From an uncultured delta proteobacterium (GTDB lineage: Bacteria; Desulfobacterota; RBG-13-43-22), in NCBI GenBank assembly GCA_963790475.1, contig CAWBOS010000006.1:192001-256000 (forward strand): a DNA stretch of 64,000 bases. Direction: 5' to 3'. Numbering within the stretch: the first letter of the stretch is position 1; every line of letters starts with the position of its first letter. The notes beneath the pieces are model-generated. The model was not told the origin of the DNA and made no database searches. It saw only the letters and a list, made by a program, of their open reading frames with translations. Position numbers and translations under genes: made by a program. Of this stretch, positions 648 to 19,275 are shown in pieces.

Positions 648-1460
648 ATGAGAAACCGTGCTAAAGAACTCACCGGCTTAACGGATTATTTAAGCCTGAT
701 AGGCGTCCGCGATTTACCGCCTCTCACCTCTCCATTTGACCCGGGGTATGACCCGCTTACCCTGGAAAGTCACATGGAACAGAGCGCACACCTGATAGCA
801 GTGTTAAAAATTTCCATGGCATGCTGGCAAATCGCAAACGAAGCCAGCACCCGCAGAAAAGTGGACGCGGCCAACCGGCTGAAAATCCCCACCTGCACCG
901 GCGGAGGCCCCTTCGAAGTTGCCGTGCAGTTCGGCAAACTCCCAGGATTCCTCGATCTGGTCGCCGATATCGGTTTCAGGCGAATTGAAGCTGGCGAAGG
1001 GTTTACAGATATGCCTCTTCCTCCAGGGCATGTGATTAAACTGGCAGCCGAAAGAGGATTGGAGGTTCAATTCGAAGTCGGCAAGAAGCACGAAGGCACT
1101 TTTATCTCCGATGTCATTGAAGAGCTCATCGACCAAGGGAAAAGGTGGCTGGATGCCGGAGCCAAACAAATTGTGGTTGAAGCGCGAGAAAATGCCCAGA
1201 ATATTGGCGTATTTGGCAGTAAAGGCGAATTTGACGCATCGGCCGCTGACCGTTTCGCGAATGCCTTTGGGTTAGAGGTCGCAATTTTTGAGGCACCCAC
1301 TAAACCAAGCCAGTTCGCGATGTTAAACCATTTTGGTCCAATGGTCCACTTGAGTAATGTCCGCATCGAAGAACTGCTCCGCGTAGAAATTTACCGAAGA
1401 GGCCTCCACTCCGATGCTTTTCAACAAGACAACTTAAGACCGGTAGGGCCGTTAAAATAA
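648..1460 (+). CDS. comA: Phosphosulfolactate synthase (ComA family)
   Basis: EVGKK, VEARE, FEAP, V.LSNV and RRGL.SD motifs; strong SD GGGAGG. Confidence 0.88.
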   Translation: MRNRAKELTGLTDYLSLIGVRDLPPLTSPFDPGYDPLTLESHMEQSAHLIAVLKISMACWQIANEASTRRKVDAANRLKIPTCTGGGPFEVAVQFGKLPGFLDLVADIGFRRIEAGEGFTDMPLPPGHVIKLAAERGLEVQFEVGKKHEGTFISDVIEELIDQGKRWLDAGAKQIVVEARENAQNIGVFGSKGEFDASAADRFANAFGLEVAIFEAPTKPSQFAMLNHFGPMVHLSNVRIEELLRVEIYRRGLHSDAFQQDNLRPVGPLK

Positions 1461-1492
1461 AACTAAACTTTCACCTTAATCTTGCTTACGGT

Positions 1493-1525
1493 AAATTCCC
1501 CGCAGCTTGCTGCGTGGTAGTTCAT
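1493..1525. repeat. Short palindrome resembling an IS200/IS605-type end or REP
   Basis: ttccccgcagc-tt-gctgcgtggtagttcat; perfect core cgcagc/gctgcg 1501-1514. Confidence 0.4.
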
Positions 1526-1590
1526 TGCAGCGATAAACGAGTATTCGAAAAAATATTGACGTAAAAGGCAAGGAGACCACTTTTCTTATC

Positions 1591-2445
1591 TTGACCCGTT
1601 TGGAACAGTACAATAGAGTACTGAAAAATTTCATGGGTAATAATCAAAGAACAATAAATGAAAACGAGTTAGAATCGTGGGAAATTATTTACGATGAACA
1701 AAGTTTCGTTGGGGATTTCTTCCGCCGAAGAATGGAAAAGGCTCTCTCGTGGGTCGACGCGATGAATTTCTCTGAAAATGCTATAATCTTTGATGCGGGT
1801 TGTGGCGGAGGCCGGTTGGTAGAAGAAGCTGTCAAGAAAGGGTATCACATAATCGGGATGGATTCCAATGAGGATGTGCTGAAGAAGGCGTTGGGTTCTC
1901 TGAAAAAAAGACCGGGCAGCAATTACTGCTTTTTACGAGGTGATGTCAAGATTATACCGGTGAAGGATTCAAGCCTGGACGCAATTATTTGCCTGGGGGT
2001 TATTTCTTATTTGAAATCGGAGATGACTGTTCTGCTTGAGTTTGCAAGAGTTTTGAAACCGGGTGGATTGCTTATTTTGAGTGCGACCAATAAGGCTCGG
2101 CTAGTGGGGCGCCTGGATATTCCTCTCATGATTTCGTCCATTAAAAAGAAGATTTTTGTGCACAAGAATATGAAGGAAGATGATGATTCTTCCAGAGAAG
2201 GAAATCATCGACAACGATCATATTTAATTCCTCGCTTCTCAAATTCGTTAGAATCCGCGGGGTTTTCTGTTTCAGGATACGTAACTTTTCCATATGAACT
2301 TCCCACATTATTTGGGCGAGAATTTCTACCACGAAGCTTCTCTGAAAAGGTCTCGTTGTTTATCGAACGATTTGCCAATTTACCCCTGGTTGGATCTTTT
2401 GGATCGAGGTGGATGATCAAAGCGCAAAAAAAGAACTTTTCATAA
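1591..2445 (+). CDS. Class I SAM-dependent methyltransferase
   Basis: IFDAGCGGG motif I; ARVLKPGG. Confidence 0.88.
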   Translation: MTRLEQYNRVLKNFMGNNQRTINENELESWEIIYDEQSFVGDFFRRRMEKALSWVDAMNFSENAIIFDAGCGGGRLVEEAVKKGYHIIGMDSNEDVLKKALGSLKKRPGSNYCFLRGDVKIIPVKDSSLDAIICLGVISYLKSEMTVLLEFARVLKPGGLLILSATNKARLVGRLDIPLMISSIKKKIFVHKNMKEDDDSSREGNHRQRSYLIPRFSNSLESAGFSVSGYVTFPYELPTLFGREFLPRSFSEKVSLFIERFANLPLVGSFGSRWMIKAQKKNFS

Positions 2446-2618
2446 GATAATTATTATAATAATGAAACCTATGCTTATTTTCAAGAGATCTATCGATTCG
2501 TCGCTGCAGTTTTCTGAATACGAGAATTCTCGTAGCTACGGTAAGCCGTTGAAAATAATCAAAATAAGTCCAGTCGTTCTCTGGAACCATCTATTAAAAT
2601 AAATCATGTGAAATTGCT

Positions 2619-3371
2619 ATGTTGACGGGGAATCATATGATTGCAATTGATGTTTTTTACAACAAAAGACTTGACTACGATAACACGTATGCGATTTTGG
2701 CAGTAGATGTAATTCGGGCGACAACCACCGCCATTACTGGCGTTGCGATGGGGAGAAAGTGTTATCCAGCGTCTTCGATTGAAGACGCGACCACTCTCGC
2801 TAAAAAGCTGGTGAACCCGTTGCTGGTGGGTGAATTGGGCGGGAACATGCCCTACGGGTTTGACCTACAAAACAGCCCCTTTCTGGTGGCCTCACGGACC
2901 GATATTATCCGCCCGATGATTCTCCTTTCCACGTCCGGCACCCGACTCATCACCAAATATAAAGGCCACGATGCCGTTTACCCGGCCTGCCTCCGAAACT
3001 ACAAAGCGCTCATCCCCCACCTGGCGGCTCACCACGACAAAGTAGCCTTGATTGGCGCAGGCACTCGCGGAGAGTTCCGCGAGGAAGACCAGCTTTGCTG
3101 CGCGTGGATAGCCGAAGGGCTCATTCAGAACGGTTTTAAACCTGAAAACGAAATGACTGCGGAAATGATCGAGCGCTGGCGGCATGCTTCGGTCGACATT
3201 ATTAGAGACGGCGAAAGCGCCGCTTATCTCAACCGATCGGGGCAAACCCAGGATCTGGATTTTATCCTGGCGCATGTGGACGACCTGCCTTTTGTGTACC
3301 AATTTAAAAATGACCAGATTGTTGAACTGTCAAAAACCACAACTTGGGAAAAAGCTGTTTTATCAGAGTGA
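2619..3371 (+). CDS. comB: 2-phosphosulfolactate phosphatase (ComB family)
   Basis: VDVIRATTT, GELGG..GFDLQNSP, STSGT and ED motifs. Confidence 0.9.
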   Translation: MLTGNHMIAIDVFYNKRLDYDNTYAILAVDVIRATTTAITGVAMGRKCYPASSIEDATTLAKKLVNPLLVGELGGNMPYGFDLQNSPFLVASRTDIIRPMILLSTSGTRLITKYKGHDAVYPACLRNYKALIPHLAAHHDKVALIGAGTRGEFREEDQLCCAWIAEGLIQNGFKPENEMTAEMIERWRHASVDIIRDGESAAYLNRSGQTQDLDFILAHVDDLPFVYQFKNDQIVELSKTTTWEKAVLSE

Positions 3372-3375
3372 AACC

Positions 3376-4596
3376 TTGACTTTAAAGCAGACCAAAATTC
3401 GACTGAAGATAGAACCATCAACACCTTGCGTCGTGATCTGCCCAGGCTACCACGGGCACGGGGTCGCACGGAGTCTTGGACGGCTGGGCGTCCCTGTCTT
3501 CGGGGTGCATGCCAACCCGAGATCTCCTTCCGCTAGCTCACATTACTGGCGCAGCAACTATCTTTGGGACCTTTCGAAAGCCTCACCCGATGAATCTTTA
3601 AACTGGTTCCTTAAACTTGCCTGCACAATTGGACAACGCCCCATTCTCATTCCCACTGACGATCATAGCTGCTTGTTTGTAGACGACCACGCCGAAGCAC
3701 TGCTTCAGGAATACGAGTTCCCAAAGCAGCCAACCGGGCTGACACGTGCGCTCTCTAACAAAAAGCTGCTTTATTCGCTGTGCAACGAGGAGTCAATTCT
3801 AACCGCCGAGACAGTCTTTCCGCAGTCGCGCGCCGACGTCATCCAGTTTATGGAAAAAGGAAACTTCCCTGTTATGCTCAAAGGGATTGACACAGTCGCT
3901 CTTCAAAAACGGGTCGGGGTTCGCATGGTTATCGTCAATGACGGTGAGACGCTGCTGAAACGCTACGATGAGATGGAAATGCCCGGCGCGCCCAGTTTGA
4001 TGATGCAGGAGTATATCCCAGGAGGAGCGGAAAACGTGTGGATGTTCGACGGATATTTTGACAGCAATTCAAACTGTCGATTCGGAATCACTGCCCGCAA
4101 ACTGCGTCAGTACCCGGCCTATACAGGCATGACCAGCCTGGGAGTATGCGAAACCAACGAAACACTCTTTAACCAAATCCAGGCCTTTATGAAAGCGGTT
4201 GGGTACTGCGGCATTCTGGATATTGGCTACAAATATAACCCGGCTAACAGAAAATATTATCTCTTAGACCCCAATCCGCGACTCGGTTGTTCATTTCGTC
4301 TCTTTGTTGATTCCATCGATATGGACGTGGTAAGGGCACTGTATTGCGACCTGACTAGGCAACCTATCCCGACCGGGAAACCAGTGGAAGGGCGCAAATG
4401 GCTGGTTGAGCTCTTTGACATCGTCTCCTCCTATCGCTATTGGCGCGATGGAAATCTTAAGTTTGGAAACTGGCTGCATTCATTCCAGGGGTTGCAAGAG
4501 GCGCAATGGTTCGCTTGGGATGACATGCGCCCATTTCTTAATGTTTGGAAGTATTCCGCCGAGACGCTCTTCAAACCGAAAGAGAAAAAGAACTGA
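3376..4596 (+). CDS. ATP-grasp carboxylate-amine ligase (D-aspartate-ligase-like); probable start TTG 3376 rather than 3184
   Basis: ARSLGRLG, LIPTDD, FPVMLK, QEYIPG, KLRQYP, LLDPNPR; the 3184 start would overlap comB extensively. Confidence 0.85.
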   Translation: MTLKQTKIRLKIEPSTPCVVICPGYHGHGVARSLGRLGVPVFGVHANPRSPSASSHYWRSNYLWDLSKASPDESLNWFLKLACTIGQRPILIPTDDHSCLFVDDHAEALLQEYEFPKQPTGLTRALSNKKLLYSLCNEESILTAETVFPQSRADVIQFMEKGNFPVMLKGIDTVALQKRVGVRMVIVNDGETLLKRYDEMEMPGAPSLMMQEYIPGGAENVWMFDGYFDSNSNCRFGITARKLRQYPAYTGMTSLGVCETNETLFNQIQAFMKAVGYCGILDIGYKYNPANRKYYLLDPNPRLGCSFRLFVDSIDMDVVRALYCDLTRQPIPTGKPVEGRKWLVELFDIVSSYRYWRDGNLKFGNWLHSFQGLQEAQWFAWDDMRPFLNVWKYSAETLFKPKEKKN

Positions 4597-4620
4597 TGAC
4601 ACTGGAATACAGACACATCC

Positions 4621-5493
4621 ATGAAACCCCAGACAAAGAACAAAAACGCAAATTTCGTCACACCTCTCCAGTTTCATGAGGAAAAGAATAACGTCAACAC
4701 TTATTTCGCGTCTGAATCTTCGGGCTGGAACGATATCTATCAAAAAGAGGATGTCTATTCCATAATCCATCAAGACCGCCGTGCGATCGCGTTTCAATAT
4801 TTCCAGGAATTGTCGCTGCCGCGGGATGCCCGCATACTGGAAATTGGGTGCGGCGCCGGTTTAACCTCGGTGGATATCGCCCGTCAGGGTTATGTCGTCC
4901 AAGCGGTTGATAGCGTGGAAGCCATGATTGACCTGACTCGTAAGAATGCGCTCAAATTTGGAATGGAAAAACAAATTCACGCCAGCGTGATGGATGTGTA
5001 TAACCTACAGTTTTCAAAACAAACCTTTGCCCTGGTCATAGCCCTGGGGGTGGCTCCTTGGCTTGCCGACCTGAACAGGGCTCTCAAAGAAATCTCAAGG
5101 GTGCTAACTCCCGGGGGGTATGTCCTGATGAATGTGGATAACCGCTATCGCCTCAATCACCTGCTAGACCCGTTTTATTTTCCCAGGCTCGCTGGTTTGA
5201 AAGAGCGGTTGAGGGATTTCCTAGAAAAGGCTAGCGTGTGCAAAACTTCCAGCATTCCCCGCCCTAAAAGACACAGCATCAAAGAGTTTGAGTCCCTGCT
5301 CGAGTCCGCCAGTCTGGTCAAACTAAAACACCGGATGCTTGGGTTTGGCCCATTTACCTTTTTAAAGATTCGCCTGTTCCCGAACTCAGTTGGAATCAAG
5401 CTTCATCGGTACCTACAAAACGAGGCCGACAAGGGAACCCCCCTCCTCCGTTCGACCGGGTCACAATACCTGGTTCTGGCGCATAAAATGTAA
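4621..5493 (+). CDS. Class I SAM-dependent methyltransferase
   Basis: ILEIGCGAG motif I; RVLTPGG; similar architecture to 1591-2445. Confidence 0.88.
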   Translation: MKPQTKNKNANFVTPLQFHEEKNNVNTYFASESSGWNDIYQKEDVYSIIHQDRRAIAFQYFQELSLPRDARILEIGCGAGLTSVDIARQGYVVQAVDSVEAMIDLTRKNALKFGMEKQIHASVMDVYNLQFSKQTFALVIALGVAPWLADLNRALKEISRVLTPGGYVLMNVDNRYRLNHLLDPFYFPRLAGLKERLRDFLEKASVCKTSSIPRPKRHSIKEFESLLESASLVKLKHRMLGFGPFTFLKIRLFPNSVGIKLHRYLQNEADKGTPLLRSTGSQYLVLAHKM

Positions 5494-5526
5494 CTTGTTA
5501 TTCCTTTTTTCATTCAACCAACCAAA

Positions 5527-6837
5527 ATGAACTCAATAATTTCTCTCAAGACCGGGGTCTGGTACGGCGATAGGCAAATTAATTTGCCCATCCCCTCGAG
5601 TTGGGATGTAAAGGTCCTTTGGCCGGCCACCCCCCCCCCTCTGACGGCGGAAGAGTTATTGAGCACCCTGGAACATCCAATAGGCAAAGCGAGGCTGACT
5701 GAAGTCTGCCGGAAGAAATCCCGACCCTTGATTCTCGTTGATGACCTGAACCGCCCTACCCCCACAGCCGAAATCATGCCGCATTTGCTAAAAATGATGA
5801 GCACGGTCGGCATCCCCTCCGAAGCGATCAAAATCCTCATGGCTACCGGTACGCATGGCCAACCGGAACCAGACGCTGTTCTCAAAAAGGTAGACGCAGC
5901 ATTCGCTAACGATCAACTACAGGTACACAACTGCTTTGCGGACACTATAAAAATTGGGGTTACCTCCTCCGGTATACCTGTATTTGTGAACAAAATCGTC
6001 ATGGAAAGCGATGTGGTCATTGGCATCAGCGGAATTTACCCCAACCACACCGCCGGTTTTGGCGGCGGGTCCAAGCTTGCTCTAGGCGTGTTGGGGATTC
6101 AAACCATCTACCATTTGCACTTTCGTCACAAGTCGGCCGGCTGGGGGAATTTCTTTCCGGAGATGGGTTTCCGACGGGATCTGGATGAAATCGCCAGAAT
6201 GATTGGTATGGAATTTAATATCTCCCTGATTATTGACGCTAACCGGCAGATCGTTCGGATGTATTGTGGCGACCCAATCGCCTACTTCCCTCGAGCAGTT
6301 TTATATTACCAGCAGGTGTTCCGTACCCAGCTCCCCGGCGATGCAGATGTCGTCATCTCAAATGCCTACCCCAACGATTGTTCACTCACATTTACGCGGA
6401 TGAAGGGATTTGTTCCGCTTGCTCTGTGCACCCCAGCAGCGACTAGAATTGCTATTTCTGCATGTCCTGAGGGGCTAGGGCTTCATAATATCTGGCCGTT
6501 TGTAAACGTGCCGCCGCGTCACCGGTTGAAACATATCCTGCGGGTTTTATCCGTCCTGACTTTAAAAGAAATCCTGGTGAGGGGGTTTCGCACCGCAATC
6601 TCCCCACTCACGAAAAGGCTTACCAACCGGCAGAAGTCAGGGAACCTAAAGGCGCTCCAATCCGTATGGCTGTACCAGACGTGCGGCTCAGAAATTAATC
6701 TACCAGCAAATGTGCCCGGAATCCATATCACATCGGATTGGCAAAAAATCCTTGAGGCTGTTCTTCGAGAACAGTCGAATCGAAATCAGCTCAAGGTTTT
6801 GGTTTATCCGTGCGCTTTTCTTCAACTGTTCGAATAA
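5527..6837 (+). CDS. LarA (nickel-pincer lactate racemase) homologue
   Basis: VDDLNRPTP, ATGTH, AGFGGGSK and TIYHLH match LarA motifs. Confidence 0.82.
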   Translation: MNSIISLKTGVWYGDRQINLPIPSSWDVKVLWPATPPPLTAEELLSTLEHPIGKARLTEVCRKKSRPLILVDDLNRPTPTAEIMPHLLKMMSTVGIPSEAIKILMATGTHGQPEPDAVLKKVDAAFANDQLQVHNCFADTIKIGVTSSGIPVFVNKIVMESDVVIGISGIYPNHTAGFGGGSKLALGVLGIQTIYHLHFRHKSAGWGNFFPEMGFRRDLDEIARMIGMEFNISLIIDANRQIVRMYCGDPIAYFPRAVLYYQQVFRTQLPGDADVVISNAYPNDCSLTFTRMKGFVPLALCTPAATRIAISACPEGLGLHNIWPFVNVPPRHRLKHILRVLSVLTLKEILVRGFRTAISPLTKRLTNRQKSGNLKALQSVWLYQTCGSEINLPANVPGIHITSDWQKILEAVLREQSNRNQLKVLVYPCAFLQLFE

Positions 6838-6856
6838 TAATTTCTCCCGGAGGATT

Positions 6857-9001
6857 ATGACTATGAGAGTTTGTATGATTGCATATACCTTCTATGAAAA
6901 CGACAATCGAGTAAGACGATATGCCGATGCCTTGGTAAAAAGAGGGGATCATGTAGATGTGGTAGCGTTGCGAAATCCCGAGTTCGCAGAGCAGGAGAAC
7001 TTTCATGGAGTTAACATATACCACATTCAAGCAAGAATCCAAAATGAGAAGCATAAGCTGTTGTATTTGGCAAAGCTACTACTTTTTCTGGTTAACTCCG
7101 GAATATTTGTCACAAAGCAACACTTGAAAAATCCATATGATGTGCTTCATATCCATAATGTCCCGGACTTCTTGGTATTTTCCGGTTTGATACCAAAGCT
7201 AAAGGGTGCAAAAGTCATTCTCGATATTCATGACATAGTCCCTGAGTTTTACGCCTCCAAATTCAAAGTCTCCAAGGATTCTCTGGTTTGTAAAGTGTTG
7301 ATGCAGATCGAGAAACTGTCGATAGCTTTTTCGGACCACGTAATTATCTCCAATCATATTTGGGAGCAAAGACTCCTCTCACGATCTATCTCGAAAGAGA
7401 AGTGTTCCGTTTTTCTCAATTACCCGGACCCCGTACTATTCTATCCGCGGAAAGTGGAGAGAGAGGCGAATAAACTAATTTTCTTATACCCCGGAACCTT
7501 GGCGTGGCACCAGGGTTTGGACGTTGCTATCAAGGCATTTGCTCTGGTAAGAGACGAGCTTGAATCTGCTGAAATGCATGTCTATGGTGGTGGCCCTGAA
7601 AGGAGAAGACTCGAGCTACTCGCTACTGAACTTGGGATAAGTCGACAAGTTGTTTTCAAGGGATCATTTCCTATAGATGAGATTGTCGATGTTATGGCGA
7701 GGTCGAACATTGGGGTGGTCCCTAAAAGAAATGATTCGTTTGGAGGGGAGGCTTTTAGCACAAAGATATTTGAGTTCATGTCTCTCGGGGTTCCCGTGAT
7801 TGCTTCGAGGACTAGGATCGACTCTTACTATTTCGATAAGTCTGTCATCCAGTTCTTCGAGCCGGGAGACGAGAATGATTTGGCGAGATGTATGATTCTG
7901 CTCGGAAAAAACAAGGGGCTACGAGATGGCATCGCAGACCGGGCCCTGGAATTTATCAAGCAATACTCGTGGGATAAAAAGAAACAAGCCTATTTTGAGT
8001 TGGTGGATGGGTTGGTCCGGAAGAATGGCGTTGTGAAAACCTCTGGGGGACAGGCAACTAGTAAGCTGCTGGGGGTTTATTATTTGATGAAACCATTCAT
8101 ACCGAGGCGCCTGCAGATCCAGATACGGAGAAGGGTTGCGTCACGAAAGAGTATCTCCAATCGACATATTTGGCCCATTAACGAGCAAACGTCAAAAAAA
8201 CCTGAAGCATGGCGCGGGTGGCCCGATGACAAACGTTTTGCCCTGGTCCTTACCCACGACGTGGAAGGAGCCAAGGGTGTCCCGAATTGTCTCAGGTTGG
8301 CCGATCTCGAGCAAGATCTTGGCTACCGGTCTTCTTTTAACTTCGTGGCCCTGGACTACGAGATTTCGAAGGAATTGATGGATAGTTTACGGGCTCGGGG
8401 GTTCGAGATTGGCCTGCACGGTCTCTATCATCATGGAAATTTGTTCAAATCCAGAAGGGCTTTTCAAAAGCAAGTTCCTCGGATTAATGAATTTTTGAAG
8501 AAATGGAATGCGGCGGGCTTCAGATCCCCCAGTATGTATCATAATTTGGAATGGATCTGTGATTTGGATATTGAGTATGATGCCTCCACATTCGATACGG
8601 ACCCATTCGAACCTCAACCGGACAGCGCGGGTACGATTTATCCGTTTATCATATCAAGGAACGGATCGAAAAGCGGATTCGTGGAGCTGCCCTATACACT
8701 TCCGCAAGACCATCTGTTGTATGTGGTGATGAGAGAAAGAACTCCCTCAATCTGGAAGCAAAAACTGGATTGGATTGCCGAGAAAGGCGGTCTGGCCTTA
8801 ATAATTACTCATCCTGATTACATAGACTTCGCTGATAAGAGAAAGCCTGTGGATGCCTATCCGGCCAATTATTATGTTGAATTTCTCCAATATATCAAAG
8901 ACCGGTACGATGGGCAGTACTGGCATGCGCTTCCGAAAGATGTCGCCCGGTTCATACGGGAATCAGAAACAGCAGCTCAGTCGTCTATAAATGGAAAATA
9001 A
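6857..9001 (+). CDS. GT4 glycosyltransferase fused to a polysaccharide-deacetylase-like domain
   Basis: N-half DNRVRR...STKIFEFMSLGVPVI; C-half LTHDVE, GLHG, GFRSP; ATG 6857 after GGAGG. Confidence 0.85.
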   Translation: MTMRVCMIAYTFYENDNRVRRYADALVKRGDHVDVVALRNPEFAEQENFHGVNIYHIQARIQNEKHKLLYLAKLLLFLVNSGIFVTKQHLKNPYDVLHIHNVPDFLVFSGLIPKLKGAKVILDIHDIVPEFYASKFKVSKDSLVCKVLMQIEKLSIAFSDHVIISNHIWEQRLLSRSISKEKCSVFLNYPDPVLFYPRKVEREANKLIFLYPGTLAWHQGLDVAIKAFALVRDELESAEMHVYGGGPERRRLELLATELGISRQVVFKGSFPIDEIVDVMARSNIGVVPKRNDSFGGEAFSTKIFEFMSLGVPVIASRTRIDSYYFDKSVIQFFEPGDENDLARCMILLGKNKGLRDGIADRALEFIKQYSWDKKKQAYFELVDGLVRKNGVVKTSGGQATSKLLGVYYLMKPFIPRRLQIQIRRRVASRKSISNRHIWPINEQTSKKPEAWRGWPDDKRFALVLTHDVEGAKGVPNCLRLADLEQDLGYRSSFNFVALDYEISKELMDSLRARGFEIGLHGLYHHGNLFKSRRAFQKQVPRINEFLKKWNAAGFRSPSMYHNLEWICDLDIEYDASTFDTDPFEPQPDSAGTIYPFIISRNGSKSGFVELPYTLPQDHLLYVVMRERTPSIWKQKLDWIAEKGGLALIITHPDYIDFADKRKPVDAYPANYYVEFLQYIKDRYDGQYWHALPKDVARFIRESETAAQSSINGK

Positions 9002-9066
9002 CAAGCACCTCTATCTTGGTCTGATTGACCAATTGGTCAAGTAAATCCAAAAATATGGTATAAAAA

Positions 9067-9432
9067 ATGAAGGAAACCGAGGGGAAGAACAAGAAGTACG
9101 ATTTAGAGGACCGGACTTTTGAATTTGCACGAGAGGTTATTGCTTTTGTCAATAAACTGAAAAAAACGTTGGCGAATATTGAAATTGGAAAACAACTGAT
9201 CCGGGCCGCCGGTTCAGTTGGAGCAAATTATATCGAGGCAAATGAAGGGCTGAGCAGGAAGGATTTCATTATGAGAATAAAGATCTGCCGAAAGGAAGCC
9301 AAGGAAGCCGGATACTGGATTCGTCTGATCGATTGCGAAGAAGGTCTGGAAAGTTCTAGAGAAAAGTTGGTGAGCGAAAGCAAAGAGTTAACTAAAATAT
9401 TTGGAGCAATAATTATTAGATGCAAATCCTAA
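9067..9432 (+). CDS. Four-helix-bundle protein (23S rRNA IVP / Avd-like family)
   Basis: DLEDRTFEF...QLIRAAGSVGANYIEANE..SRKDF...KEAKE..YW. Confidence 0.9.
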   Translation: MKETEGKNKKYDLEDRTFEFAREVIAFVNKLKKTLANIEIGKQLIRAAGSVGANYIEANEGLSRKDFIMRIKICRKEAKEAGYWIRLIDCEEGLESSREKLVSESKELTKIFGAIIIRCKS

Positions 9433-9454
9433 ATCGCGAATTCTAAACTCAAAA
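9424..9454 (+). repeat. Heptamer repeat (aaatcct/aaatcgc/gaattct/aaactca) overlapping the stop codon
   Basis: Imperfect reverse complement of 9924-9954. Confidence 0.7.
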
Positions 9455-9466
9455 TAAGGATTTCTT

Positions 9467-9706
9467 ATGATTAGAAATTATACCGCTAAATATATAAAAA
9501 TTAGCAAAGGGTATATGGGACAGTTAATTGAGTGGCCGGAGGTCATCACTGAAGGCCGGGATATTGAAGAATGCCGTCGAATGCTGCGGGATGCCCTAAA
9601 ACAAATGGTTTTAGCCTATAAGCAGATACATAAAGAAATTCCCATTGGCGACGGTTTGATCGAACAGCTCCCCGTGGATATCCAAGATGTCTATCAAACG
9701 GCGTGA
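9467..9706 (+). CDS. hicB: HicB-family antitoxin
   Basis: YTAKY...EWPEVITEGRDIEECRRMLRDAL. Confidence 0.85.
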   Translation: MIRNYTAKYIKISKGYMGQLIEWPEVITEGRDIEECRRMLRDALKQMVLAYKQIHKEIPIGDGLIEQLPVDIQDVYQTA

Positions 9707-9875
9707 CCTAATCAAATATCTTGAAGAAAATGGATTTCGTTTTATAAGAGAAGGTGGGAGTCATTCTATCTATTCGAATGAGAACAAAACCATCCCGGTT
9801 AAAAGGCATCGTTCTTTAGATAGAATAACCGCCAATGAACTTTGCAAGCAAGCCGGAATAATCCCAAAATTTTGA
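9687..9875 (+). CDS. hicA: HicA-family toxin
   Basis: KRRDLIKYLEENGF..IREGGSH..IPVKRH. Confidence 0.88.
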   Translation: MSIKRRDLIKYLEENGFRFIREGGSHSIYSNENKTIPVKRHRSLDRITANELCKQAGIIPKF

Positions 9876-9923
9876 TGTCAGATTTTTGGATTGGGGTATT
9901 TGAATATTAGTATGGTCTATTAT

Positions 9924-9954
9924 TTTCGGATTTCGAATTTGGGATTTAGAGTTT
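9924..9954 (+). repeat. Heptamer repeat (tttcgga/tttcgaa/tttggga/tttagag) ending at the next start codon
   Basis: Imperfect reverse complement of 9424-9454. Confidence 0.7.
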
Positions 9955-11263
9955 GACCAGAATGCGTCTCGATCGTCTATTAACCCTATATCTATTTGGT
10001 CCTCTGGCTCGCCTCCGCAAACCCAGGGGTCTGCGAATCCCCATCCTCATGTATCACAGTATTTCCGATGACCCGGAAACCGGCCATCCGTACTATTGGA
10101 TCAACACATCCCCGGCATGCTTCGCCGAACACATGAAATTTCTTTATGATAATGGATATCAGGTAATTCCCCTCTCAACCGCGGTCGAAATGATCCGGAT
10201 GGAAAAAACTAATTCTAAAATTCTAAATTTTAACCTCGAACCTCGAACCTCGAACCTCGAACCTGGATCGAACCTCGAACCTCGAACCTCGAACCCCGAA
10301 AAGGGATTAACCAACAAACCAAACAAACTTAACGAACTCAATAACCCAATAGACCCAATCAACCAGCCAACCAATCAATCCGATCAATTAAATGGACTGG
10401 ATAGACCAAACCAACAAAATAGACCCAATGAACTCAAGGAACCCGAAGAACCCAATGAACTCAACCAACCCAATAGACTCAAAGAACCAGAGAAACCCCG
10501 CTACGTGGTCTTAACCTTTGACGATGGCTATCTCGACTTCTACACCGAAGCCTTTCCCATCCTCCAGCAATACGGTTTCCACGCAACCGTGTTTCTTCCG
10601 ACGATCTTCATCGATGGGAAAAGACCAGGCCTTCGGGGTAAGGAGCACCTCAACTGGGATCAGGTTCGCGAACTTCGTACCGTCGGCATTACTATCGGCT
10701 CTCACACCTGCAGCCACCCACAGCTTTACGATTTGCCGTTAGATAAAATTGAGCAGGAACTCCACCGGTCAAAAGAATCAATCGAATTTCATCTGAATCA
10801 AACAACCAACAAAGAAGTTAAGCAATCAGCCCAGTCAACCAATAAGCCCAATAAACTAAATGAATCCTATGAGCTATCAGCTATGAGCTATAAGCCATTT
10901 CCACCCGATCACCCGATCACCCTGTCTTCCGTGGATTCTTTTTGTTATCCTTATAAATTTCCCGGGCAAAACAAAGCTTTTCGAACTTTGCTATCCGATT
11001 CCTTGAAGAAAACAGGCTATAACAACTGCGTTACGACGAGGATAGGATCATACAATACCGCGGAGGATATTTTGTGTATGAAACGGTTGCCTATGAATAG
11101 GGCCGACGACCATTGGCTTTTTCGTGCGAAGCTTCAGGGAGGCTATGATTGGCTTGCGTGTCTTCAATCCCTGACTAAAAAAACCAACAGGGGGAGCAGA
11201 GTTGGCCGTCCGGTAGGTCAAATGATCGAGAAAGTCCAAACAAAGGCAGGGGTAAGAGCATGA
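9953..11263 (+). CDS. Polysaccharide deacetylase (CE4/NodB-like) with two repeat-derived in-frame insertions
   Basis: ILMYH, LTFDDG, GSHTCSH, FCYPY; low-complexity inserts about 10205-10497 and 10796-10928. Confidence 0.88.
   Translation: MTRMRLDRLLTLYLFGPLARLRKPRGLRIPILMYHSISDDPETGHPYYWINTSPACFAEHMKFLYDNGYQVIPLSTAVEMIRMEKTNSKILNFNLEPRTSNLEPGSNLEPRTSNPEKGLTNKPNKLNELNNPIDPINQPTNQSDQLNGLDRPNQQNRPNELKEPEEPNELNQPNRLKEPEKPRYVVLTFDDGYLDFYTEAFPILQQYGFHATVFLPTIFIDGKRPGLRGKEHLNWDQVRELRTVGITIGSHTCSHPQLYDLPLDKIEQELHRSKESIEFHLNQTTNKEVKQSAQSTNKPNKLNESYELSAMSYKPFPPDHPITLSSVDSFCYPYKFPGQNKAFRTLLSDSLKKTGYNNCVTTRIGSYNTAEDILCMKRLPMNRADDHWLFRAKLQGGYDWLACLQSLTKKTNRGSRVGRPVGQMIEKVQTKAGVRA
10232..10298 (+). repeat. 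(AACCTCG)n heptamer array inside CDS
   Basis: 4 perfect + 1 variant unit, 4-nt spacer, 3 perfect + 1 variant unit. Confidence 0.95.
10308..10497 (+). repeat. Degenerate 9-mer array inside CDS (actcaataa/cccaataga/cccaatgaa type)
   Basis: Direct reading; same family as intergenic 39424-39485 and reverse complement of 37438-37490. Confidence 0.85.
10867..10925 (+). repeat. Heptamer (ctatgag/ctatcag) x4 plus octamer (cacccgat) x3 inside CDS
   Basis: Heptamer tract is the near reverse complement of intergenic 36214-36244. Confidence 0.85.
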
Positions 11264-12126
11264 CTCCCGGATATGTCGTCATCACTCCCATCAGGGATGA
11301 GGAAGCCTACATAGAAAAGACCATCGACTCTATGGTTTCTCAAACAATTGCCCCAATGCAATGGATTATCGTTGACGATGGATCTACGGACGGTACCGGT
11401 GGGCTTATAGATAATGCGGCGAACCTTTACCCTTGGATTCTGTCAATCCATCGAGAGGATAGAGGATTTCGCAAGGCGGGTGGTGGGGTTATTGAGGCCT
11501 TTTACGCTGGTTATGCCGCACTCTCGTGTGAAGATTGGGATTTTGTCGTAAAACTGGACGGGGACCTGTCCTTCGAACCGGACTATTTTGAGAAGTGTTT
11601 TGCTATTTTCAGAACAGATCCCAAACTCGGGGTCGGTGGAGGCCATATCTATAACCTGATCGAAGGCAGATTGGAGCTGGAAAAACAACCACGCTTCCAT
11701 GTGCGAGGAGCTACGAAAATTTACAGGAGAACCTGTTGGGATGCAATAGGCAGTCTGCTTGCCGCACCCGGGTGGGACACCCTCGATGAGGTAAAGGCAA
11801 ATATGCTCGGCTGGACCAGCTACAGCTTCCCGGAGTTGAAGCTGACTCATCATCGGTACACAGGCGGTGCCGATGGCACCTGGCGAGACGCGGTTAAGAA
11901 CGGCCTTTCGGACTACATTTGTGGATACCACCCCTTATTTATGGCAATCAAATGCCTCAAGCGGCTCGGGGGAAAACCCTATCTGTTGGGATCATTGGGC
12001 CACGCCTACGGCTTTGGGAAGGGCTACCTTAAGGGGGTATCTCAAATCAATGACCCAGCGCTCATCAAATACCTGAGGGCGCAGCAGTTGAAGAGGCTTT
12101 GCCTGAAATCCAGTATCTGGACTTAG
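11260..12126 (+). CDS. GT2 glycosyltransferase
   Basis: VVITPIRDEE, IVDDGSTD, KLDGD, GWD. Confidence 0.9.
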   Translation: MTPGYVVITPIRDEEAYIEKTIDSMVSQTIAPMQWIIVDDGSTDGTGGLIDNAANLYPWILSIHREDRGFRKAGGGVIEAFYAGYAALSCEDWDFVVKLDGDLSFEPDYFEKCFAIFRTDPKLGVGGGHIYNLIEGRLELEKQPRFHVRGATKIYRRTCWDAIGSLLAAPGWDTLDEVKANMLGWTSYSFPELKLTHHRYTGGADGTWRDAVKNGLSDYICGYHPLFMAIKCLKRLGGKPYLLGSLGHAYGFGKGYLKGVSQINDPALIKYLRAQQLKRLCLKSSIWT

Positions 12127-12163
12127 GAAGTCAGTTCCCTATTCCGGAGGCAGTCGGCAAAAA

Positions 12164-13138
12164 ATGGATTTATCAATAATCATCGTCAACTGGAATTCCG
12201 CGAACTACCTCCGGAAATGCCTTGAGACTGTATTCGCGAACATCCATGGCCTTGATTTCGAAGTTATTGTAGTCGATAATGCATCCTACGACGGATGCGG
12301 CGAAATACTCGAAACTTACTTCCCGACTGTCAAGTTTGTACAAAGTGCCAAGAATCTCGGGTTTGCAGGCGCCAATAATCTTGGCTTCAACCATTCGTCC
12401 GGAGAAAATCTCCTCTTCCTGAATCCGGATACTGAAGTTCTCGGCTCGGCAATCCAGGACATGCTTCATGTCCTCCGAACGATTCCCGACGCCGGAGCAG
12501 TGGGATGCAGGCTGCTGAATACGGATGGGTCTTTACAGACTACCTGCATCCAGCCGTTCCCAACCCTCCTAAACCAGATGCTGGACACAGATTTTCTGAT
12601 ACTTCGTTTCCCCAGTTGGAAAATTTGGGGCGTAAGGCCCCTTTTCTTCGGTTCGGACCATGCTGAAACTGTTGAGGTGGTGACCGGAGCCTGTTTGCTG
12701 GTAAGGCGAAGTGATTTTGAAAAAGCAGGGATATTCAGTTCCGATTATTTTATGTATGGGGAAGATATAGATCTATGTTTTAAACTGGTCAGGTCCGGTC
12801 AAAGGAATTATTACCAGGGAGGCGCATCGATTGTCCACCATGGGGGGAAGAGTGCGGATCAGGCGAGCTTCAGCCATTTCAATGCGGTCCATAAACGGGA
12901 TTCCGTTCGTATATTTTTCTGCAAATTCAGGGGCCCTTTCCAGGCCCACCTTTACACCTTCACCACCGGGTTATCTGCGGTCGCCCGGTTGATTGTGATC
13001 CTTTTGTCCAGTCCCGGGGCCTTCCTGACTCGGCGCAGGAAGCGCCTGGGGGTGACATTCAAAAAATGGATGACCGTCTTAAAGTGGTCCTTAAGGGGCT
13101 CCCGGCGGACCAACGAAATTTCTTTAAAAGGCGTTTAG
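12164..13138 (+). CDS. GT2 glycosyltransferase (WbbL-like)
   Basis: SIIIVNWNS, VDNASYD, NLGFAGANN, LNPDT, GACLL, YGEDID. Confidence 0.9.
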   Translation: MDLSIIIVNWNSANYLRKCLETVFANIHGLDFEVIVVDNASYDGCGEILETYFPTVKFVQSAKNLGFAGANNLGFNHSSGENLLFLNPDTEVLGSAIQDMLHVLRTIPDAGAVGCRLLNTDGSLQTTCIQPFPTLLNQMLDTDFLILRFPSWKIWGVRPLFFGSDHAETVEVVTGACLLVRRSDFEKAGIFSSDYFMYGEDIDLCFKLVRSGQRNYYQGGASIVHHGGKSADQASFSHFNAVHKRDSVRIFFCKFRGPFQAHLYTFTTGLSAVARLIVILLSSPGAFLTRRRKRLGVTFKKWMTVLKWSLRGSRRTNEISLKGV

Positions 13139-13147
13139 ACAATTTCC

Positions 13148-15070
13148 ATGTGTGGAATCTGCGGCATATTTTATCTGGATAAGGATCGGGTGGTGTCACC
13201 GATTCTTTTGAAAAACATGGCTGACATCATGCATCACCGGGGGCCTGACGACGAAGGGTTTTATATCGCCGGACGGATTGGATTTGGCCATAGACGCCTC
13301 TCGATTATCGACCTCGATACAGGCAAGCAGCCGATAAGCAATGAAGATGAAACAGTCTGGATCGTTTTCAATGGAGAAATCTATAATTATCTGGAACTTA
13401 AAAAAACATTGATAGCCAAGGGACATCAGTTTAAGACTCGCTCGGATACCGAGGTGATTATTCATGCTTATGAGGAATATGGGGCCGATTGCGTAACCAA
13501 GCTCAATGGGATGTTCGCCTTCGCCATCTGGGACGAAAAACAACAAACCTTATTCCTGGCCCGGGACCGTGTCGGGATCAAACCGCTTTATTATACCCGG
13601 ACTGAAGGGGCCTTGGTGTTTGCCTCTGAAATCAAGGCCATTCTGACGGATCCTTCCATTCCCAGGAGAATGAACCTGGGTTCCATCGACAGGTTTCTGA
13701 CTTACTATTATCTCCCCGGGGAAGAAACTTTACTCGAAGGTATCTATAAACTTAGTCCAGGCCATTATCTAATAGCTAATGAAAAGGGGGTAACCAAACG
13801 GCGGTATTGGGATTTACATTTTGATATTTCACCTCGCTGGCAGGATTTTAATGAAGCGGTGGAAGCCTTACGGGAGATCCTGCGCCGGTCGGTCAAGGAT
13901 CATATGATCAGTGATGTCCCGGTGGGTGTGCTGCTCAGCGGCGGGGTGGATTCTACCGGAGTGTTGCGTTATGCCGTCGAGCAGACCGACAAACCTATTC
14001 GGACGTTTACCATCGGGTTTGAGGGAGAGAAATTTACCGACGAACGGCCCTATGCCCGTTTGGCGGCCGAGCGCTATGGTACGATTCATCAGGATATAAC
14101 CATGACCTCCAGGGATTTCCGTGAATTCCTCCCCCATTATGTCTGGCATATGGAAGAGCCCGTCTGTGAACCGCCGGCCGTGGCCCTCTATTATGTTTCC
14201 CGGCTCGCCCGGGACAACGGGGTCAAGGTGCTGCTCTCCGGGGAGGGGGGGGACGAGGCCTTCGGAGGTTATCAGACTTACCGAAACCTTCTTTTATTAG
14301 AGAAATTAAAATCAGCCTTCGGTCCGGCCAAAGGATTGTTGCGACTCGGTTTTCAGGCTTTGGGGCGGGTCGGTCTGAAACGTTTTGAACACTACGGCAC
14401 CTTGGTTGACCCGACCCTATCCCAATACTACCTCAGTCGTACTTCCACCCCATACATGGGATTCAACCGCCTCAAAGGTTCCCTTTACACGGAGGAATTC
14501 AAGGAAGCACTCCGTACCGGCCAATCAGCGGAATCAACCAATCAGCCTTTCAATCAATTTGATGATCTGCAGATCAACCAATCTCCCTTAAATTACATGC
14601 TTTATATGGATACGAAAACCTGGCTTCCGGATGATTTGCTGGTAAAGGCGGACAAGATGACCATGGCCACCTCTGTAGAGCTGCGGGTACCGCTGCTCGA
14701 TTTTCAAATTCTGGAATTCGCGGCATCGCTTCCGGAGGATTATAAGGTTCGGGGCTGGGAAACCAAACGGATCCTTAAGGCGTGCCTGGCAGAGTCCGTG
14801 CCCTCGGAAATTTTAAGAAGGAAAAAGACCGGCTTTCCAGTTCCATACGGCAACTGGTTACAAGGGAACCTGAAAGATCTCGTTGAAAAAAACTTATTAG
14901 AAAAAGAAGCTGTTGGACGTGGCTATTTTTTCAGAAAAGGGATAGAAGAGATGGTCTCAGCCAATGCGACGAGAGGGGATGGCGCCAAGGAGATCTTTTC
15001 CCTATTGGTATTAGAACTTTGGCATAAAAAATTTTTAGATAACAAAACCATGAATCCTTTAAGCTCTTAA
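13148..15070 (+). CDS. asnB: Asparagine synthase (glutamine-hydrolysing) family amidotransferase
   Basis: MCGICG, HRGPD, NGEIYN, LLSGGVDS, SGEGGDE, ELRVP. Confidence 0.93.
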   Translation: MCGICGIFYLDKDRVVSPILLKNMADIMHHRGPDDEGFYIAGRIGFGHRRLSIIDLDTGKQPISNEDETVWIVFNGEIYNYLELKKTLIAKGHQFKTRSDTEVIIHAYEEYGADCVTKLNGMFAFAIWDEKQQTLFLARDRVGIKPLYYTRTEGALVFASEIKAILTDPSIPRRMNLGSIDRFLTYYYLPGEETLLEGIYKLSPGHYLIANEKGVTKRRYWDLHFDISPRWQDFNEAVEALREILRRSVKDHMISDVPVGVLLSGGVDSTGVLRYAVEQTDKPIRTFTIGFEGEKFTDERPYARLAAERYGTIHQDITMTSRDFREFLPHYVWHMEEPVCEPPAVALYYVSRLARDNGVKVLLSGEGGDEAFGGYQTYRNLLLLEKLKSAFGPAKGLLRLGFQALGRVGLKRFEHYGTLVDPTLSQYYLSRTSTPYMGFNRLKGSLYTEEFKEALRTGQSAESTNQPFNQFDDLQINQSPLNYMLYMDTKTWLPDDLLVKADKMTMATSVELRVPLLDFQILEFAASLPEDYKVRGWETKRILKACLAESVPSEILRRKKTGFPVPYGNWLQGNLKDLVEKNLLEKEAVGRGYFFRKGIEEMVSANATRGDGAKEIFSLLVLELWHKKFLDNKTMNPLSS

Positions 15071-15102
15071 GGAATTGTTTTTAAAATATAGGAAAACCGG
15101 TT

Positions 15103-16320: not shown

Positions 16321-16335
16321 GTTTAGGTTATCTGT

Positions 16336-17295
16336 ATGAAAATCAGCGTTCTTATCCCGACTTACAATTCTTCAAAGACTATCCGAGCGACTCTCGACTC
16401 AGTGTTACAGCAAACTGTTCAGCCGGATGAAATACTTGTTCTCGATGATGGAAGCACCGACGATACGGTGTCACTGCTTAATTCATACAAGGGAAAGGTT
16501 AACGTTTTTCAGCAGGGGAATAGAGGTGTGGCCAGTGCCCGAAATGTGCTTTGCGAGCGTGCCAATGGGGACCTCATTGCTTTCCTCGATCACGATGACA
16601 TCTGGCATCCAGCCTACCTCGAGGTACAGCGTAGGCATTTAGAAGATTACCCAGACTCAGTTGCGTTCTTCACAGGGCATGTTAACTTTTATGGATATGG
16701 GGCGTACCGTTGGGAGAATAATGAATTTGACGTCGAGGAGACTCCTGAAGTAATGAGCCCCTTGAGGTTCTTTAAGAGATATAACAAATTCAACGGCCTT
16801 TTTAGCTCCGCCAGTTTCTTTTGCATTCGCAAATCGGTGCTGTCAAAAATTGGTAGCGAACCATTCCTTGAACAAGTCAGTGGAGTGGACGATGGTTATC
16901 TCTGCAATTTACTTCCCTTTTTTGGTTGTGTAGTCTATACTCGGCTTCCTTTGGTAGCGTATAGAATTATTAAGGAGGGACAATCGACGGACAAATTAAA
17001 GACCTTCGGGCTCAATGTAAAAATGTTTGAGCTTCTCGAGAGACGCTACAGAAACTTGCTAGACAGGAGACTCTCCACGGCCTTCGAAATGGCTTATGCT
17101 TCAAAAAGACGGACATACGCCAAGTTTTTATTGGGGGCAGGGATGACCTCCGACGCACGAGCCCAGCTACGGCACTCTCTGGGAAACACAAAAAATCCTT
17201 TGTCAATAGTAAAATCCCAGGCCTTGCTGTTATTGAGCTACATGCCCTCTCAGCTACAGCCTAAATATCCTACGAGCTACCGAGAATGGGAGTGA
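16336..17295 (+). CDS. GT2 glycosyltransferase
   Basis: SVLIPTYN, DDGSTD, ASARN, FLDHDD. Confidence 0.9.
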   Translation: MKISVLIPTYNSSKTIRATLDSVLQQTVQPDEILVLDDGSTDDTVSLLNSYKGKVNVFQQGNRGVASARNVLCERANGDLIAFLDHDDIWHPAYLEVQRRHLEDYPDSVAFFTGHVNFYGYGAYRWENNEFDVEETPEVMSPLRFFKRYNKFNGLFSSASFFCIRKSVLSKIGSEPFLEQVSGVDDGYLCNLLPFFGCVVYTRLPLVAYRIIKEGQSTDKLKTFGLNVKMFELLERRYRNLLDRRLSTAFEMAYASKRRTYAKFLLGAGMTSDARAQLRHSLGNTKNPLSIVKSQALLLLSYMPSQLQPKYPTSYREWE

Positions 17296-19259: not shown

Positions 19260-19275
19260 TGGCATTTTATTTGCA
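19260..19275 (+). promoter_or_regulatory. Sigma54 -24/-12 promoter
   Basis: TGGCATTTTATTTGCA, GG-N10-GC spacing. Confidence 0.7.

Follow-up and report, generated by a model that had tools for sequence, protein, structure and literature searches.

The DNA analysed here is a 64,000-nt stretch (the window) of contig CAWBOS010000006.1, positions 192,001-256,000 of the forward strand, from an uncultured delta proteobacterium whose genome is rated 100% complete with 9.68% contamination. Between positions 648 and 11263 it carries a gene cassette, entirely on the + strand, in which enzymes of the ComA and ComB families, predicted to make (R)-sulfolactate, stand with a predicted ATP-grasp ligase, a LarA homologue, two methyltransferases and two deacetylase domains (Table 1). 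A sequence-only reading of the window had listed all of these genes, and each is present at or near the place where it put them. Both deacetylase domains stand, with the C-terminal extension of the glycosyltransferase family 4 (GT4) protein predicted to fold as carbohydrate esterase family 4 (CE4) and the second protein passing PF01522. The same reading placed the cassette at the head of an exopolysaccharide (EPS) gene run; it lies instead in the middle of the locus, with same-strand glycan-type genes in the 14 kb upstream.

Table 1. Genes of the cassette and of the wider EPS locus in the window (bit scores with family cut-offs in brackets).
Feature	Position	Strand	Basis
ComA-family phosphosulfolactate synthase (sulfite + phosphoenolpyruvate)	648..1460	+	PF02679, 146.9 bits (25.2)
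MT1, class I S-adenosylmethionine methyltransferase, distant paralogue of MT2	1591..2445	+	Methyltransf_11/25
ComB-family 2-phosphosulfolactate phosphatase	2619..3371	+	PF04029, 123.7 bits (26.4)
ATP-grasp carboxylate ligase (predicted), unnamed family, 428 aa	3310..4596	+	Fold, no Pfam match; alternative start TTG 3376
MT2, methyltransferase travelling with the ATP-grasp, sometimes fused to it	4621..5493	+	Family search
LarA homologue (nickel-pincer-nucleotide hydroxy-acid racemase/epimerase family)	5527..6837	+	Lar_N, 127.9 bits (23.3)
GT4 fused to a CE4-fold (deacetylase-like) C-terminal domain (about 8030-9001, 320 aa)	6857..9001	+	Glycos_transf_1
CE4 polysaccharide deacetylase with low-complexity insert	9953..11263	+	PF01522, 76.8 bits (23.1)
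EPS assembly: GT2, GT2, AsnB-type amidotransferase (13148-15070), GT4, GT2	11260..17295	+	
Membrane/export part: 454-aa protein (9 transmembrane-like segments), 520-aa protein, third methyltransferase (MT3), GT4 pieces, Wzx flippase (23586-25169)	17388..25169	+	
XrtA/PEP-CTERM regulators PrsK, PrsR, PrsT	44289..54427	+	TIGR02916, 383 bits (300); TIGR02915, 628 bits (502.6); TIGR02917, 404 bits (312.2)

With respect to the first two enzymes, we observe that ComA covers positions 13-243 of the 243-position PF02679 profile and that its residues 26-258 give a full-length alignment to M. jannaschii ComA (1QWG), in which E103, E133, K137, E168 and R170 of the latter (counted along the chain) are identical in the window protein. 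These acidic, lysine and arginine positions belong to the active site of the M. jannaschii enzyme. ComB aligns to the probable ComB structures 2YYV and 1VR0, with conserved blocks in common. Between phyla, the ComA proteins of such cassettes are 56-87% identical, indicating strong constraint. The whole genome encodes a single ComA and a single ComB, both within this locus, and it also encodes DsrA (615 bits, cut-off 393) with a DsrB-like neighbour (contig C12, 101030-103442), so that sulfite should be a cellular intermediate. No member of the PAPS-reductase family was found in the genome, while the family is present in 14 of 14 control genomes.

In archaea, ComA and ComB carry out the opening two steps of the coenzyme M (CoM) route, as set out in the accessible text of PMC5695019, and their presence in an EPS locus might accordingly be a coincidence, the pair serving CoM or sulfolactate metabolism. 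A split UxaA/GarD-like pair of 389 aa and 90 aa lies elsewhere in the genome (contig C13, 745-2174 of locus L088; 222 bits with the galactarate dehydratase model, cut-off 730). Its architecture presumably resembles that of the sulfolactate sulfo-lyase SuyAB, a resemblance that falls short of an assignment; it would not account for a synthetic ComAB in any case, and a sulfo-lyase would undo, not need, ComAB. We regard a coincidence as very improbable, as ComAB stays linked to the ligase and to glycan genes over 11 phyla and ComA is found in 0 of 40 relatives of the host. In agreement with the sequence-only reading, no comC, comD or comE was found within the 64 kb, and no complete CoM route was found in the genome either: ComD (TIGR03845) and ComC (sought as the Ldh_2 type, PF02615) gave 0 matches genome-wide, and the best ComE match (TIGR03846) reached 37 bits against a cut-off of 221.5. 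The CoM reading was rejected on this basis.

The third enzyme of the core, the Pfam-less 428-aa protein, is an ATP-grasp according to its structural model, which was built with AlphaFold (AF2) on 25 homologues (predicted local distance difference test score, pLDDT, 80.9) and for which Foldseek returned PurK, biotin carboxylase and L-amino-acid ligases as the best matches (probability 1.00, E ~1e-12, template modelling (TM) score ~0.55). K191, E234, D320, N322 and R324 are invariant among the 25 homologues, a set that we take to match the ATP/Mg-binding residue pattern of ATP-grasp enzymes. The fold matches are generic, with no close characterised relative among them, and a sequence search of the PDB gave weak matches only (best acetyl-CoA carboxylase, E 0.026). 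More than 2400 proteins of this family were found in the protein collection searched, and homologues carry the Joint Genome Institute (JGI) label 'D-aspartate ligase'. As for the start of the gene, the longest open reading frame (ORF) runs from 3184, the ATG at 3310 overlaps comB, and the in-frame TTG at 3376 lies 5 nt past the comB stop.

Gene fusions link several of these enzymes directly. Among the longer ligase relatives (19 with E<=1e-40, plus P0008), at least nine are fusions with an MT2-type methyltransferase, found in both domain orders (P0008, P0126, P0128-P0132, P0136, P0137), and P0135 (1186 aa; a single record from one contig) combines ligase, methyltransferase and LarA in the gene order of the window, at 45%, 40% and 42% identity. 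The other fusions comprise tandem ATP-grasps (P0121-P0123, P0125), a TylF-type methyltransferase (P0134) and FemAB-like PF13480 domains (P0124, P0127), the last of which point toward amine-acylating chemistry. P0138 and P0139 are distant relatives (35-37% identity) fused to a lysine/ornithine N-monooxygenase-type flavoprotein domain.

Of the two cassette methyltransferases, MT1 is about 25% identical to MT2-type proteins, and a PDB search with MT2 returned generic class I methyltransferases only; two methyltransferases are likewise present in loci L003 and L021 of the survey described below. The LarA homologue aligns to the malate racemase Mar2 (6D6Z) and to LarA itself, with a best NCBIfam match of 177.9 bits against a cut-off of 500, and thus falls outside the characterised subgroups, such as lactate racemase, malate racemase and LarAH10. 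It is 38-52% identical, over the full length, to 13 cassette-linked LarA proteins and 28-30% identical to the three paralogues in its own genome, which are Lar_N proteins above the family cut-off. In L. plantarum LarA, His108 and His174 form the catalytic pair, Lys184 tethers the nickel-pincer nucleotide (NPN) and His200 binds nickel (PMC12611868, accessible part). The window protein has H110, H174, K183 and H198, and the first, third and fourth of these are present in 14 of 14 cassette-linked proteins. Genes for the NPN cofactor are present in the genome (LarC, 443.5 bits; LarE, 256.4 bits, cut-off 150).

The C-terminal domain of the GT4 protein is weak by CE4 hidden Markov models (HMMs; PF01522, E 0.006 and 17 bits, under the cut-off of 23.1; TIGR03006, E 0.004), and its model (pLDDT 89) has a CE4/NodB fold, with 3RXZ, PuuE (3CL6), 1Z7A and ArnD (8T0J) as best matches (TM scores 0.53-0.61). 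H76, D77, H130 and H134 hardly vary among 20 homologues of this domain, which has 1974 homologues in total and occurs on either side of fusion partners of about 400 aa. The translation of the second, canonical CE4 deacetylase shows TFDD and HTCSH (H-x-x-x-H), which we take to be the CE4 metal and catalytic motifs. Its insert is encoded by a 7-nt repeat (AACCTCG, 10.3 copies, 10232-10300) and a 27-nt repeat (10409-10487) that are in frame at present; the gene may be phase-variable, since gain or loss of one 7-nt unit shifts the frame. Between the two deacetylase genes lies a four-helix-bundle gene (9067-9432) of the 23S rRNA intervening-sequence protein family (TIGR02436, 71.5 bits), followed by about 520 nt without a long ORF. 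We observe no transmembrane- or signal-like segment in the cassette enzymes or in either CE4 domain, apart from one internal hydrophobic stretch in the GT4 part.

To place the cassette in a wider context, we collected the best 80 of at least 553 places that encode a ligase relative in species-representative genomes, spread over 11 named phyla with Bathyarchaeota and Methanobacteriota among them, and searched all six-frame ORFs of each locus with HMMs. ComA and ComB are both found in 67 of the 80 loci (68 for each by tblastn), and in 48 of these 67 triad loci the genes stand tightly spaced on the same strand in the order ComA-ComB-ligase. The triad loci further contain a methyltransferase (39), a LarA homologue (11), a canonical CE4 (11), a DegT aminotransferase (12) or a UDP-glucose dehydrogenase (UGDH; 7), with locus L025, from a Terriglobia metagenome-assembled genome, showing ComA, ComB, ligase, methyltransferase, LarA and a CE4-like domain collinear with the window. 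Clustering of the neighbouring genes, combined with Pfam, returned mainly glycan families (GT4, NAD epimerase/dehydratase, DegT, Wza, BcsQ-like ATPase, AAA+PEGA, Wzx, Wzy, NusG-like, UGDH, Wzz, GT2 and the GFO oxidoreductases). Glycosyltransferases, Wzx, Wzy, Wza or Wzz are present in 38 of the 45 long triad loci (each at least 15 kb) and any glycan gene in 41, while the same glycan HMMs match 197 of 2000 random 21-kb windows of the host genome. None of the scored glycan families is found in L012, L022, L025 or L067, of which L025 has the CE4-like domain. Two families without a Pfam match recur at these loci, namely a protein of about 450 aa after the ligase or ligases in nine loci (including L044, 11331-12683, and L030, 7892-9238) and one of about 355 aa before ComA in six loci, including the Bryobacterales locus L054.

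The reverse search gives a similar picture. Metagenome contigs scanned with an alignment of the LarA clade yielded 80 loci, of which 50 have ComA, 44 ComB, 42 the ligase and 57 MT2; in the subset of 28 loci where LarA is flanked by 3 kb or more on each side, the counts are 23, 24, 23 and 21, respectively. The 22 long loci (at least 15 kb) carry core glycan genes in 18 cases, CE4 in 13, DegT in 6 and UGDH in none, and the contrast between CE4 and UGDH speaks for an amine as the acceptor in cassettes of the LarA type, that of the window included. Once three duplicate pairs are merged, CE4 is present in 11 of 19 long LarA-type loci, against 9 of 2000 random 17.3-kb windows of the host genome. In four loci (L133, L137, L150, L153) the CE4 gene begins some 100 nt downstream of LarA in the same orientation, and in L122 the two genes adjoin on opposite strands. 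The CE4-like domain that is fused to GT4 in the window, found in 4 of the 80 genome loci, follows LarA in L025 and L105, occupying the post-LarA place in the latter, and precedes the ligase in L003.

The sequence-only reading had made its case depend on conservation of the association in other genomes, and this is what we observe, with ComA and ComB beside the ligase in 67 of 80 loci, the LarA clade tied to the core enzymes in 23-24 of 28, CE4 in 11 of 19 and glycan-assembly genes in 38 of 45. Since the grouping recurs in other phyla, it is far beyond chance. Closer to the host, neither the ligase clade (E<=1e-30) nor ComA (over the cut-off) was found in any of 40 relatives, 13 of them of the same genus, indicating that the cassette is an accessory, jointly acquired module. 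On the sequence evidence the sulfolactate-glycan proposal is supported, having come through every refutation test named by that reading that can be run in silico.

We therefore put the probability that the cassette makes a group derived from sulfolactate and decorates the EPS with it at roughly 0.55, somewhat better than an even bet, and would class it as non-carbohydrate tailoring of surface glycans by known enzyme families in an undescribed combination. We infer every chemical step, as well as the acceptor, the polarity of the bond, the order of the steps and the role of the methyltransferases. ComA would add sulfite to phosphoenolpyruvate (PEP), giving phosphosulfolactate, in an organism whose DsrAB could supply the sulfite, and ComB would remove the phosphate to give (R)-3-sulfolactate, unless it acts after ligation. 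The LarA-type nickel-pincer enzyme would then act on C2 of the hydroxy acid (inversion) and MT2 would methylate it, the 2-hydroxyl being the simplest guess. The ATP-grasp would activate the carboxylate of sulfolactate as an acyl phosphate and pass it to the free sugar amine of a cytoplasmic nucleotide- or lipid-linked repeat unit, forming an amide with a de-N-acetylated sugar. The amine might come from the GT4-fused CE4-like domain, from the CE4 deacetylase, from both, or from the upstream GFO/DegT pair. Ligation is placed in the cytoplasm because it needs ATP, and the absence of transmembrane- or signal-like segments fits this placement. Wzx would finally flip the unit before polymerisation to an EPS with a carbon-bonded sulfonate.

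Three variants of this scheme deserve mention. The FemAB-like fusions, together with a FemAB-family gene upstream of the window, suggest that an aminoacyl spacer might be placed on the sugar first and then capped with sulfolactate. By analogy with Cj1438C and Cj1435 of C. jejuni, it is possible that phosphosulfolactate is ligated and dephosphorylated afterwards (PMC11800379, accessible part). A bolder idea is that MT2 and the LarA-type enzyme cooperate on a transient 2-oxo form, resulting in C-methylation. In its most specific form, our proposal is that ComA, ComB, the ATP-grasp, MT2, the LarA-type enzyme and CE4 make up an undescribed, horizontally mobile tailoring machine, its parts sometimes fused, from which de-N-acetylated sugars receive a sulfolactyl amide that is methylated and inverted at C2; this we put forward tentatively, at rather worse than even odds.

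Several observations weigh against a sulfolactate-decorated glycan, the first of which concerns the chemistry of the ComA/ComB pair. Both proteins fall well below the curated NCBIfam equivalog cut-offs (ComA, 145.8 bits against 280 for TIGR03849; ComB, 91.5 against 235 for its best match), from which it follows that they are divergent members of their families rather than CoM-pathway equivalogs, and ComA is about 30% identical to M. jannaschii ComA (a by-eye estimate from the alignment). The pair could thus make another phospho- or hydroxy-acid that the ligase then attaches. We consider this quite unlikely, as the full-length alignment to 1QWG keeps the acidic, lysine and arginine positions, the ComB motifs are kept relative to 2YYV, the identity of 56-87% across phyla speaks for strong constraint, and DsrAB offers a source of sulfite. 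To our knowledge, the addition of sulfite to PEP is the sole chemistry of the ComA family.

A second set of adverse observations concerns the ligase, which does not always travel with ComAB. ComA, ComB or both are missing nearby in 13 of the 80 ligase loci, several of which are on short contigs, and among five genomes of such loci that were searched, ComA is altogether absent from three, which carry L030, L068 and L074. In three Acidobacteriota loci (L030, 3418-7835; L057, 8006-11302; L068, 8609-11251) an ornithine-cyclodeaminase/mu-crystallin gene stands in for ComAB before the ligase, and in L030 and L057 a methyltransferase follows it. The arrangement in L030 (cyclodeaminase-methyltransferase-ligase-ligase-unknown) is syntenic with that in L044 (methyltransferase-ComA-ComB-ligase-ligase-unknown), the paired ligases being 62% and 68% identical. 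On the ligase tree, the label 'next to ComAB' needs 16 changes, compared with a mean of 16.6 when shuffled, and is thus unclustered, which indicates that the ligase family is not strictly specific for sulfolactate. The idea of a separate sulfolactate clade of ligases was dropped, as ComAB-linked and unlinked members are intermixed on the tree. R58 and D404 are kept in at least 97% of ComAB-linked ligases and are altered in L057 and L068 and unaltered in L030. We read these patterns as a modular system in which the ligase and the acceptor are constant and the acid-making genes are swappable. The cyclodeaminase loci would be a parallel cassette with another acid.

The same patterns can be read with the polarity reversed, so that the ATP-grasp activates a glycan carboxylate (a uronic acid) and the 2-hydroxyl of sulfolactate attacks it, giving an ester-linked sulfolactate, with the amine of an amino acid attacking at the cyclodeaminase loci. 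This too would count against our scheme, and it has a precedent in C. jejuni, where the Cj1438C ATP-grasp activates the carboxylate of capsule glucuronic acid and adds serinol phosphate or ethanolamine phosphate, the phosphate being removed later by a separate phosphatase (PMC11800379, accessible part). The swap of ComAB for a cyclodeaminase beside orthologous ligases fits a constant substrate on the glycan side, UGDH is present in 7 of 67 triad loci, and the AsnB-type amidotransferase of the window hints at polymer carboxylates. ATP-grasp enzymes that form esters with 2-hydroxy acids also exist, as in VanA. However, UGDH is found in 0 and CE4 in 13 of the 22 long LarA-type loci, the ligase is not TupA-like and has no Pfam match, and the FemAB-like fusions point to acylation of amines; moreover, esters between uronic acids and hydroxy acids are not a common glycan feature as far as we know. 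We consider the reversed polarity unlikely.

Further points against the amide-linked sulfolactyl group come from the tailoring enzymes and from the scope of the comparisons. The position corresponding to His174 is His in 8 of the 14 cassette-linked LarA proteins and Asn, Gln or Arg in most of the others. LarA homologues without His174 are unable to run the usual two-base racemisation (PMC12611868, accessible part), so that simple two-way racemisation may not be the shared function of the clade; its common reaction may be one-directional or different, while the window protein retains His174. Any CE4-like domain is present in 12 of the 67 ligase-seeded triad loci, and the random-window controls were drawn from one genome, that of the window. 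Finally, the literature search found no report of a sulfolactyl glycan, although most subscription journals and supplements lay outside it and an O-antigen structure report could be missed. Within that search, no paper combined 'phosphosulfolactate synthase' with 'ATP-grasp', used the word 'sulfolactyl', or brought together 'sulfolactate', 'biosynthetic gene cluster' and 'ligase', and papers that paired sulfolactate with polysaccharide terms were irrelevant; PMC4641369 and PMC7324677 name sulfolactate in passing or in reference lists only, and PMC6018796 covers catabolic suyAB/comC only. The sequence-only reading knew of no described pathway of this kind, and our search likewise found none.

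The GT4-deacetylase fusion that directly follows the cassette raises one more possibility, namely a small soluble conjugate. Sulfolactate, the sulfonate counterpart of malate, would receive N-acetylglucosamine on its 2-hydroxyl from GT4, the amine would be exposed by the deacetylase domain of the fusion, and the ATP-grasp would join an amino acid to it; another version is an osmolyte that contains sulfolactate. The window GT4 proteins give weak BshA and MshA matches, the best characterised relatives of the LarA homologue are malate racemases, and four long triad loci lack a glycan gene. We nevertheless hold such a product to be improbable: the matches (BshA, 42.3 bits against 273.7; MshA, 37.3 against 462.5) are far below the cut-offs, the conserved core is ComA-ComB-ligase without a fixed GT4, with the fusion domain in 4 of 80 loci, genes for Wzx, Wzy, Wza and Wzz lie around it in many phyla, and the window locus itself has Wzx and PEP-CTERM regulators.

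In the remainder of the locus, the AsnB-type amidotransferase scores 562 bits with TIGR03108, below the cut-off of 816.9, and the 454-aa membrane protein is, as a guess, Wzy-like. A possibly split or broken GT4 lies at 21899-23215, consisting of a 195-aa ORF (no Pfam match, one transmembrane-like segment) and a 232-aa ORF with the C-terminal Glycos_transf_1 part only. Farther downstream of Wzx we find a WecB gene, a 1287-aa protein with four choice-of-anchor Z repeat domains (25445-29308; NF058597, 374 bits) and a REP-associated tyrosine transposase-like gene (30996-31961; 70.7 bits, under the cut-off of 80). The G+C content is 0.39-0.40 over 18000-26000 (Wzy-like protein, MT3, Wzx), compared with 0.46-0.49 in the cassette and 0.488 in the genome, so that the locus looks mosaic. 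An Rfam search of 1-26000 gave no match, and a promoter and terminator scan of 1-12000 was at shuffle level (15 against 16.2 and 11 against 13.9 in shuffles). The 14 kb upstream of the window (locus L097, C6 178001-192700) encode, on the same strand, a GFO-type oxidoreductase (UDP-GlcNAc 3-dehydrogenase-like), a DegT aminotransferase and a FemAB-family PEP-CTERM protein, together with an agmatinase-like protein, a PigA-like (prolyl-carrier-protein dehydrogenase-like) acyl dehydrogenase, an amino-acid adenylation enzyme, a methyltransferase and a GT2; to judge from its genes, this run may be another pathway for acyl decoration within the EPS locus, distinct from that of the cassette.

Particular contributions of this window are the extended MT2-LarA-deacetylase sub-module, which the reverse search confirms, a fusion of three of the enzymes, the CE4-type fold of the extension on GT4, the exchange of ComAB for a cyclodeaminase, and the DsrAB and PEP-CTERM context. 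If the most specific form of our proposal is true, these loci would represent a class of carbon-sulfonated exopolysaccharides that extends through 11 or more phyla of bacteria and archaea, and nickel-pincer enzymes would have a first role in glycan tailoring. Cellular sulfite (here by way of DsrAB) would then be connected with the chemistry of the matrix and with the sulfolactate present in the environment. A carbon-bonded sulfonate is charged at any pH and sulfatase-proof, and an EPS that carries it would not behave like a sulfated or carboxylated polymer with regard to metal binding, hydration, recognition by phages and grazers, and persistence. The cassette is present in many uncultured Acidobacteriota, Chloroflexota, Actinomycetota, Gemmatimonadota and Bathyarchaeota, where it could be an unnoticed source of organosulfonates, including sulfolactate for SuyAB-type degraders, and a sink for sulfite. 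It also provides a testable substrate hypothesis for three uncharacterised clades, the ATP-grasp family (more than 2400 members), the LarA clade and the CE4-like domain family (about 2000).

When compared with known systems, the cassette shares two enzyme families and a predicted product, (R)-sulfolactate from PEP and sulfite, with archaeal CoM synthesis, and differs from it in lacking ComC, ComD and ComE, in the tie of the pair to an ATP-grasp in glycan loci and in scores below the equivalog cut-offs. Sulfolactate is also known from the spores of B. subtilis, where YitD and YitC, of the same two families, supply it. The window LarA homologue has the Lar_N domain, the NPN-tethering lysine and the nickel-binding histidine of its superfamily, with LarC and LarE in the genome, while its clade lies outside the characterised subgroups, is tied to ComAB, the ligase and a methyltransferase, and is variable at the second catalytic histidine. 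The accessible text of two surveys of the LarA superfamily (PMC7583248, PMC11770544) contains 0 occurrences of sulfolactate, polysaccharide or ATP-grasp.

Small-molecule pathways offer a further parallel. The logic of bacillithiol and mycothiol synthesis uses a GT4, a deacetylase and a ligase in turn, and the window has a GT4-deacetylase fusion beside an ATP-dependent ligase and a malate-like hydroxy acid; in contrast, the BshA and MshA models are far under their cut-offs, the fusion lies outside the conserved core and the context is one of polymer export. The D-aspartate ligase Aslfm of E. faecium is an ATP-grasp that activates a small acid onto the amine of a cell-envelope precursor, as is proposed for the window ligase, whose homologues bear the JGI label; substrate and context differ. 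The C-terminal ATP-grasp of Cj1438 with the phosphatase Cj1435 is similar to our cassette as proposed, in that an ATP-grasp of a polysaccharide locus adds a group through an amide bond, starting from a small phosphorylated compound and with a phosphatase as a separate enzyme, and differs from it in that Cj1438C is TupA-like and activates a sugar carboxylate for a small amine, whereas the window ligase belongs to another, unnamed family and its proposed partner, sulfolactate, has no amine (PMC11800379, accessible part).

In kind of product there is a likeness to the type 1 capsule of S. aureus. We know of no involvement of ComA or ComB in that capsule. Its decoration is taurine, not sulfolactate, and it is nonetheless, like the polymer proposed here, a surface polysaccharide that bears a carbon-bonded sulfonate by way of a small appended molecule (PMC12043029, accessible part).

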